A stretch of DNA of 39,266 nt from Escherichia phage N30. The DNA lies in sequence record NC_048078.1; one strand, given 5' to 3'. The notes below the pieces were generated by a model. The model saw only the letters and a program-made list of their open reading frames with translations, was not told where the DNA came from and searched no databases. Both the position numbers and the translations under genes were made by a program. Shown here piece by piece: positions 7,641 to 8,555 of the stretch. Every line of letters begins with the position of its first letter. Position 1 is the first letter of the stretch.

Positions 7641-7901
7641 ATGTTCCGACTTCACTTCAACAAAAGCCTTAAGAATTTCACGGTTCGCCGTGCTGACCGT
7701 TCAATCGTATGTGCGAGCGAACGCCGAGCTAAGTTACCTCTTATTGGTAATACAGTTCCTTTGGCACCGAGCGTCCACATCATTATCACTCGAGGTGACT
7801 TCGAGAAAGCAATAGACAAGAAACGTCCGGTTCTTAGCGTGGCAGTGACCCGCTTCCCGTTCGTCCGTCTGTTACTCAAACGAATCAAGGAGGTGTTCTG
7901 A
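7641..7901 (+). CDS. 1.6: gp1.6
   Basis: [41 protein letters not shown]... (86 aa); internal Met of track ORF 7557..7901, 11 nt after the phi1.6 start site. Confidence 0.85.
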
Positions 7902-8443
7902 TGTCTGGTTGCATAGCTTGCTTAGAGAAAGACGACCGTTATCCACATACCTGTAATAAAGGAGCTAACGATATGACCGAACGTGAACAAGAGATGATCA
8001 TTAAGTTGATAGACAACAACGAAGGTCGCCCAGATGATTTGAATGGCTGCGGACTTCTCTGCTCTAATGTCCCTTGTCACCTCTGCCCAGCAAATAACGA
8101 TCAAAAGATAACCTTAGGTGAAATCCGAGCGATGGACCCACGTAAGTCTAAGTCGGATAAACCAGAGGTAACTCCTACAGATGACCAACCTTCCACTGAG
8201 TCAATCGAAGGTGTCACGAAGCCATCTCATTACATGCTGTTCGACGACATTGAGGCTATCGAAGTGATTGCCCGTTCGATGACCCGTGAGCAGTTCAAAG
8301 GGTATTGCTTCGGGAACATCCTTAAGTACCGCCTACGTGCTGGTAAGAAATCCGAACTGGCTTACTTAGAGAAGGACATGGCGAAAGCTGGGTTCTACGG
8401 TGAACTGTACGAGAAACATAAGGATAAGTGCTACGATGCTTAA
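7901..8443 (+). CDS. 1.7: gp1.7, nucleotide (dGMP/dTMP) kinase
   Basis: 180 aa, [51 protein letters not shown]...; start overlaps the 1.6 stop (TGATG). Confidence 0.9.
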   Translation: MSGCIACLEKDDRYPHTCNKGANDMTEREQEMIIKLIDNNEGRPDDLNGCGLLCSNVPCHLCPANNDQKITLGEIRAMDPRKSKSDKPEVTPTDDQPSTESIEGVTKPSHYMLFDDIEAIEVIARSMTREQFKGYCFGNILKYRLRAGKKSELAYLEKDMAKAGFYGELYEKHKDKCYDA

Positions 8444-8555
8444 GCCAAGTGAATGGTGCCACAAGATGTGGACTGAATGTATAGAACGTGGTGACGAGGA
8501 ATCAGCCAGTCACTACATGGAACTTTACAACCAATGGCTATCGCGAGGTTATTGA
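8436..8555 (+). CDS. 1.8: gp1.8
   Basis: Hand-translated 39-aa [42 protein letters not shown] overlapping the 1.7 end by 8 nt. Confidence 0.6.

Follow-up and report, generated by a model that had tools for sequence, protein, structure and literature searches.

Short genes 1.7 and 1.8 in Escherichia phage N30 reflect allelic and mosaic variation among T7-like phages

Genes 1.7 and 1.8 of Escherichia phage N30 (NC_048078.1) lie between gene 1.6 and gene 2 in a window of 39,266 nucleotides (nt), the window being the whole stretch of DNA that was analysed. An earlier note on this DNA had remarked that both genes are shorter than their T7 counterparts and had read them as products of small in-frame deletions that keep the overlapping-gene architecture. 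We find that the short genes are ordinary allelic and mosaic variation of a T7-like phage, already represented in public records. We put at roughly 90% the probability that N30 is a natural Teseptimavirus, and not T7, whose alleles from 1.6 to 2 circulate widely in the group. The locus is laid out as follows.

7641-7901, + strand: gene 1.6, 86 amino acids (PHROG 1777, E 9e-42), with the position and length of T7 gene 1.6.
7887-7895, + strand: Shine-Dalgarno (SD) sequence of gene 1.7, AAGGAGGTG, within the 3' end of gene 1.6; identical in T7, pO111, 13a, C5 and the metagenomic contig L010.
7901-8443, + strand: gene 1.7, a T7-type nucleotide kinase of 180 amino acids, the allele with an MSGC... 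N terminus.
8436-8555, + strand: gene 1.8, 39 amino acids, a family-typical allele; stop codon TGA at 8553-8555.
8557-8751, + strand: gene 2, the host RNA polymerase inhibitor, 64 amino acids; it begins 1 nt past the gene 1.8 stop.

The surrounding region carries T7-type promoters and follows the T7 order 1.3, TE terminator, 1.5, 1.6, 1.7, 1.8, 2, 2.5. Aligning genes 1.6 to 2 with T7 (AY264774), a check proposed in the earlier note, confirmed the lengths that it had claimed to differ: gp1.7 has 180 residues in N30 and 196 in T7 (8167-8757), and gp1.8 has 39 in N30 and 48 in T7 (8750-8896). As also described there, the gene 1.6 stop TGA (7899-7901) and the gene 1.7 ATG (7901-7903) share the A at 7901 to form TGATG. 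Genes 1.7 and 1.8 overlap by 8 nt (ATGCTTAA, 8436-8443). The overlapping architecture is indeed kept, T7 having the same 1-nt overlap at 1.6/1.7 and 8-nt overlap at 1.7/1.8; the two phages differ in the spacer between 1.8 and 2, which is 2 nt in T7 and 1 nt in N30. A longer in-frame gene 1.7 is impossible because 7901 marks the first start codon after the stop in that frame.

Protein alignment shows that N30 gp1.7 lacks 17 N-terminal residues, T7 having MGLLDGEAWEKENPPVQAT where N30 has MS, and carries one extra residue near the C terminus (CYDA, against CYA in T7). With 17 residues missing at one end and one gained near the other, the net difference is 16, in line with the N-terminal shortening of about 16 that had been estimated. 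At the DNA level the N-terminal difference maps to one site.

7903-7905, + strand: gene 1.7 indel site, right after the ATG; the long alleles (T7, L010) have 51 more nt here, encoding GLLDGEAWEKENPPVQA.

DNA alignments show a single, clean, in-frame gap of 51 nt with both flanks conserved, also in L010, and the SD-TGATG junction with gene 1.6 left intact. Phages 13a and HZ2R8 lack 54 nt at the same site. No convincing microhomology was found at the indel, where there are matches of 2 nt only and a pair of TGGG repeats that lie 55 nt apart and out of frame. The proposal of a small in-frame deletion in gene 1.7 therefore stands as far as the clean in-frame indel goes. The word deletion is not justified, because T7 is not the ancestor, forms of 179 or 180 amino acids are commoner than the T7-type form, and N-terminal classes interleave on a tree of the shared protein core.

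At the amino acid level, N30 gp1.7 is 92% identical to T7 over the shared 179 residues, 95% to pO111, 97% to 13a and 98% to the metagenomic cluster P0001, which likewise has 180 residues. Residues 3-180 match PHROG 2585, 'nucleotide kinase' (E 3.6e-87), and the gene sits where expected in a T7-like genome, after 1.6 and before 1.8/2 in the class II region. The family assignment also draws on a Pfam domain.

8213-8398, + strand: DUF3310 domain, residues 105-166 (Pfam PF11753, E 1e-21, 77.2 bits against a cut-off of 24).

DUF3310, the conserved core of the kinase family, lies far from the indel. N30 gp1.7 also has the central Cys cluster: among 72 homologues C54, C59 and C62 never vary, and conservation of C50 is 90% or higher. 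No PDB entry related to gp1.7 was found at E values up to 1. The dTMP/dGMP (deoxythymidine and deoxyguanosine monophosphate) kinase activity of T7 gp1.7 is cited from the literature in PMC7693777 and PMC11897194, and the 92% identity to T7 suggests that N30 gp1.7 probably shares it. In the laboratory, gp1.7 is non-essential (PMC9712115).

Searching a protein collection returned 632 gp1.7 homologues, and we counted N-terminal classes in the best 120 clusters.

No appendage: 55 of 120 clusters, 155-158 amino acids.
MGC start: 33 of 120 clusters, mostly 179 amino acids.
MSGC start (N30 type): 8 of 120 clusters, mostly 180 amino acids.
T7-type extension with CxxC: 19 of 120 clusters, mostly 197 amino acids.
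Extension without CxxC: 5 of 120 clusters, 179-193 amino acids.

The 179/180-residue forms outnumber the T7-type form by 41 to 19 in these best 120 clusters. On a neighbour-joining tree of the shared protein core the classes interleave, and the long-form P0002, which is the gp1.7 protein of contig L010 and 95% identical to N30 gp1.7, adjoins the N30-type P0001 (98% identical). Isolate genomes contain the T7-type N terminus at full length in 102 phage records; among the matches listed, nearly all are T7 itself, the exceptions being Kluyvera phage Kvp1 and Citrobacter phage YSYH. The same 180-residue gp1.7 is annotated in phage pO111. The proteins of 13a and HZ2R8 have 179 residues and an MGC start, and that of C5 has 155 residues, begins MTTYD and is without the N-terminal Cys/His segment.

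Two features of the gene 1.7 5' region bear on how this variation could be accommodated.

7910-7954, + strand: N-terminal Cys/His cluster C4-x2-C7...H16-x-C18, kept in N30 and absent from the 155-residue alleles of C5/K1F type.
7958-7975, + strand: internal SD sequence AAAGGAG (7958-7964), 8 nt, then ATG (7973-7975); this Met25 equals T7 Met42, and the context is the same in T7.

The Cys/His cluster may bind metal. Met25 is nearly invariant in the 72 homologues, and many homologues, including whole lineages, begin exactly at its position. The internal ATG is likely a second translation start, with a predicted product of 156 amino acids and 17.8 kDa. T7 gp1.7 is reported to occur as two similarly active forms, the smaller from an internal start. 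We calculate 22,184 Da for full-length T7 gp1.7, in agreement with the reported mass, and 17,711 Da for the Met42 form, which is not an exact match to the reported one.

An AlphaFold2 model of gp1.7 built with 71 sequences has a mean predicted local distance difference test (pLDDT) score of 62.6 and a predicted template modelling (pTM) score of 0.36, with pLDDT below 50 at residues 1-24. The model places a confident small domain from residue 25 onward (helix 27-39 plus the invariant Cys cluster), followed by a predicted disordered linker at 84-118 and a predicted helical C-terminal domain; the DUF3310 part is helical, with block-mean pLDDT of 64-78. We picture the segment before Met25 as an optional, poorly structured appendage, of which there are at least five versions. 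The kinase core, comprising the Cys cluster domain and DUF3310, is conserved. Given the strong internal ribosome-binding site and the lineages that start at Met25, the appendage is probably dispensable for kinase function and in-frame indels right after the gene 1.7 start codon are probably tolerated. Such indels would not affect the translational coupling between 1.6 and 1.7.

Gene 1.8 presents a different picture. N30 and T7 gp1.8 share 50% amino acid identity; at the N terminus the T7 protein is longer by about 16 residues, and internally it is shorter by 7. The DNA can hardly be aligned, with 26-46% identity in sliding windows across N30 8428-8476, and N30-T7 identity collapses from about 8390 to 8556. 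A small in-frame deletion of the T7 gene, as the earlier note had it, does not describe this pair of proteins, in which the N-terminal and internal differences are of opposite sign. All of N30 gp1.8 (residues 1-39) aligns with positions 4-42 of the 46 in PHROG 1312 (E 1.1e-20), whereas T7 gp1.8 matches that profile only with residues 16-48 and its N-terminal extension has no counterpart there. All 616 phage records that match the 39-residue protein by tblastn contain it at full length, and they extend into Klebsiella Drulisvirus and Drexlerviridae. There are 157 records with a full-length match to the 48-residue T7 protein, and in about 120 the identity is 90% or higher; the other T7 gp1.8 matches listed align mostly from about residue 16-21 on. 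N30 gp1.8 is 97% identical to that of pO111 and 95% to that of 13a, and its gene lies directly downstream of 1.7, which it overlaps, and upstream of gene 2. A Pfam scan of N30 gp1.8, run on a copy older than the one with PF26839, gave no hit; the 39-residue homologue in L010 has a precomputed PF26839 (DUF8272) hit in the newer Pfam. Together, these comparisons identify 39 residues as the norm for the gp1.8 family and T7, with its divergent 48-residue allele, as the outlier.

Small gp1.8-like proteins also occur well outside the T7 genus. In Klebsiella phage Kp2 (L007, 1053-1617) such a gene overlaps the end of a DUF3310 kinase gene, and in Pectobacterium phage Nobby_B1 (L009, 1105-1611) its upstream neighbour encodes a protein that has a dATP/dGTP diphosphohydrolase N-terminal domain. 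In the siphovirus BEC3 (L008, 1489-1617) the upstream neighbour of the gp1.8-like protein had no Pfam match. These settings hint that gp1.8 is linked with nucleotide-metabolism enzymes. RefSeq omits gene 1.8 in HZ2R8 (L004, 1394-1513) and C5 (L005, about 8760-8880), where the open reading frame (ORF) is intact and conserved. The start of C5 gene 2, annotated from 8825 to give 85 amino acids instead of 64, looks too far upstream.

The indel that shapes the N30 1.7/1.8 junction is invisible in a comparison with T7: it is the absence of an 88-nt segment that carries a micro-ORF.

8442-8444, + strand: junction of the missing 88 nt, between TTAA and GCC; the breakpoint is ambiguous by 2 nt because AA stands on either side.

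The 88 nt lie between GCTTAA and GCCAAGTG; they are present in 13a, C5, L010 and a second metagenomic contig, L011, and absent from N30, pO111 and HZ2R8. They encode a hydrophobic micro-ORF of 35 amino acids, MTLNDVLYFGLICAGVGALLRLMYWAIEVEYGKAK (PHROG 29660, E 2e-28), the product of which looks like a single membrane helix. This micro-ORF is found in 73 phage records at 67-100% identity, including K1F (Kayfunavirus). L011, which has it, encodes a gp1.7 98% identical to that of N30. Between 1.7 and 1.8, T7 lacks the micro-ORF as well. Because it is present in Kayfunavirus and in the relatives closest on both sides, its absence from N30 is most simply a loss. The micro-ORF stands at 1391-1498 in 13a (L003) and at 8676-8780 in C5 (L005), where RefSeq leaves it unannotated.

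Without the 88 nt, the first codons of the micro-ORF would run in frame into gene 1.8 from its codon 3. This fused state is seen in HZ2R8, which reads ATG ATT CTT AAG CCT... (MILKPSEW). In N30 and pO111, TAT GAC is replaced by TAC GAT, two changes that are synonymous in gene 1.7. This replacement would destroy the fused ATG and create another 3 nt downstream, giving a protein of 39 amino acids that starts MLKPSEW. With the 88-nt segment absent, N30 gene 1.8 therefore starts on codons at the former micro-ORF start. Gene 1.8 of T7 has its start at the TATG position that the micro-ORF uses. The idea that the T7 gp1.8 extension is a remnant of the micro-ORF was unsupported, since the global DNA alignment score was reached by 54 of 500 shuffles.

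At the genome scale, blastn aligns N30 with T7 AY264774 in blocks of 84.6-94.8% identity separated by several gene-sized gaps. Genome-wide identity to T7 is about 90%, which places N30 within the genus and below the 95% or more nucleotide identity to T7 of members of the species Teseptimavirus T7. Descent from laboratory T7 was rejected on the same figure. The closest whole genome is Escherichia phage C5 (NC_048079), 98.3% identical over the first 25 kb of N30. Identity to C5 (blastn) is uneven across the genes in question.

699-7615: 99.55% identity to C5.
7613-7906 (gene 1.6): 95.6% identity to C5.
7994-8443 (gene 1.7): 87.1% identity to C5.
8442-18796: 99.0% identity to C5.

Judged by these identities, the 1.6-1.7 block (7613-8443, + strand) is a recombinant patch relative to a C5-like backbone. 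On the right it ends where the micro-ORF is missing. Inside the patch N30 matches pO111 (95.7%), WW2, HZ2R8 and 13a best, and the top 40 matches do not include C5. Contig L010 pairs a long gp1.7 with the micro-ORF and a 39-residue gp1.8, so the variable pieces assort independently. About 200 extra nt lie between genes 1.5 and 1.6 in C5 and are absent from N30.

Several histories could connect the N30 and T7 states. An ancestor resembling T7 may have given rise to N30 by losing 48 nt from gene 1.7 and 27 nt from gene 1.8, both in frame. The clean in-frame gap with conserved flanks in gene 1.7 agrees with this, and the form that retains the MGLLDG...WEK extension without CxxC (5 clusters) has the appearance of a long form shortened by deletion, so that long ancestors apparently do undergo such losses. 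However, the N-terminal gap is 51 nt and becomes a net 48 nt through the extra C-terminal codon, and relatives of the C5/K1F type, starting at the internal Met, are without the whole gp1.7 appendage. The alignments refute the deletion history for gene 1.8, a 50%-identical allele in which a 16-residue N-terminal difference and a 7-residue internal one run in opposite directions; the T7 gp1.8 extension is, moreover, absent from the family profile and from most of the matches listed outside the T7 lineage. We consider this history unlikely. The converse, that T7 is derived in both genes, by a 51-nt insertion in 1.7 and a longer, divergent 1.8, with N30 keeping the older state, is possible but less likely than not. 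It would account for the limited occurrence of full-length T7-type gp1.8 (157 records, of which about 120 are at least 90% identical), for the listed isolate records with a T7-type gp1.7 N terminus being nearly all T7, plus Kvp1 and YSYH, and for the dominance of short gp1.7 forms among homologue clusters. Yet the long gp1.7 occurs in 19 diverse metagenomic clusters, adjoining short forms on the core tree, as P0002 does, and is therefore not a novelty of T7 alone; N30's own gene 1.8 start, in turn, is derived because it depends on loss of the micro-ORF. An artefact, be it mis-called starts, a sequencing or assembly error, or a laboratory T7 deletion mutant, has a practically negligible chance. 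We found nothing in its favour, although many engineered or evolved T7 deletion genomes are in the databases. No longer in-frame ORF exists upstream of 7901, N30 is only about 87-95% identical to T7 in each genome block (blastn), and its junctions recur base for base in pO111, the 1.6/1.7 junction in L011 also. We rejected an artefact on these three grounds: the ORF limits, the divergence from T7 and the repetition of the junctions in independent sequences.

Selection on the gp1.7 N terminus would be another driver, variants being favoured for altered recognition by a host immune sensor or altered regulation. PMC11897194 reports T7 gp1.7 as a candidate activator of Avs5, a defence protein of Escherichia fergusonii, five N-terminal architectures interleave on the core tree, and the 1.6-1.7 patch sits within an otherwise 99% C5-like region. 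Nothing ties the N terminus to sensing, however; PMC11897194 does not map the recognised part of gp1.7, and for T7-like early and middle regions neutrality already predicts mosaicism and indels in a dispensable tail. We find adaptive variation of this kind quite improbable. That the N-terminal modules and the presence or absence of the micro-ORF are selected cassettes, tuning immune visibility or 1.7-1.8 expression, is very improbable; if true, the 1.6-1.7 patch of N30 would be a recent adaptive swap. Our preferred reading, allelic and mosaic variation in a natural Teseptimavirus, has its own points to answer. The 51-nt difference in gene 1.7 may be a gain or a loss, and the interleaving of N-terminal classes could reflect recombination instead of repeated indels. 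The MSGC clusters (n = 8) are a minority among the short forms, and choosing loss over gain of the micro-ORF is an argument from parsimony. Use of the internal start in N30 is a prediction from sequence. The evidence for disorder at residues 1-24 is weak because model confidence is moderate (mean pLDDT 62.6), and a zinc-bound knuckle at the gp1.7 N terminus would likewise model poorly.

Allelic and mosaic variation implies that T7 should not be taken as the reference state of the genus, as it carries a minority allele for gene 1.8 and, largely, for the gene 1.7 N terminus. For annotators, the N30-type gene 1.8 start sits at the position of the lost micro-ORF's start, and the point at which several lineages begin gp1.7 is marked by an internal ribosome-binding site and Met that are conserved.

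Other parts of the genome also differ from T7 in gene content. N30 is without gene 1.4 (7456-7523): the phi1.5 promoter comes directly after the TE terminator hairpin that follows the ligase gene, and next stands gene 1.5, which encodes 30 amino acids (PHROG 12128). This arrangement without 1.4 is as in 13a; T7 has the gene. Relative to T7, N30 further lacks genes 2.8, 5.3 and 7.7 (at N30 positions of about 9519-9540, 15776-15778 and 18787-18796), and gene 7.7, an HNH endonuclease, is missing relative to C5 as well. After gene 4, N30 has about 440 extra nt compared with T7 (12215-12652), which by collinearity correspond to the annotated 'endonuclease' of C5. These gains and losses follow the usual presence/absence pattern of homing-endonuclease-like genes. 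In the distal tail-fibre gene 17 region and downstream of it, blastn gives no T7 match for N30 34045-35237 and no C5 match for 34874-35284. This points to a receptor-binding end of another kind or to an additional ORF similar to the hypothetical gene after 17 in C5. Upstream of gene 1.7, gp1.6 (7641-7898) matches Pfam PF06726, 'Bladder cancer-related protein BC10' (E 1.4e-23), and RefSeq names gp1.6 of Kvp1 and BA14 'BC10 family protein'; it is odd for a Pfam family to be common to a phage early protein and a small animal membrane protein.

Among named relatives, pO111 (OR204652) is arranged at this locus as N30 is, with a gp1.6 of 86 amino acids, a gp1.7 of 180, the TGATG overlap, a gp1.8 of 39, the ATGCTTAA overlap and no micro-ORF before gene 2. 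The two are 95.7% identical over 1121 nt, a matter of a few percent of point differences, and the remainder of the N30 genome is nearer C5 than pO111. Phage 13a (EU734174) resembles N30 in its 39-residue gp1.8 (95% identical) and its gp1.7 (97% identical), and differs in a gene 1.7 that is one codon shorter at the N terminus and in keeping the 88-nt micro-ORF segment, so that its gp1.8 starts MEKPSEW at its own ATG. C5 likewise keeps the micro-ORF, unlike N30, and its gene 1.7 is 87% identical in nucleotides over the shared part. T7 shares with N30 the order 1.6-1.7-1.8-2, the SD sequences, the internal SD-ATG and the DUF3310 core, and stands apart in a gp1.8 with a lineage-specific N-terminal extension.

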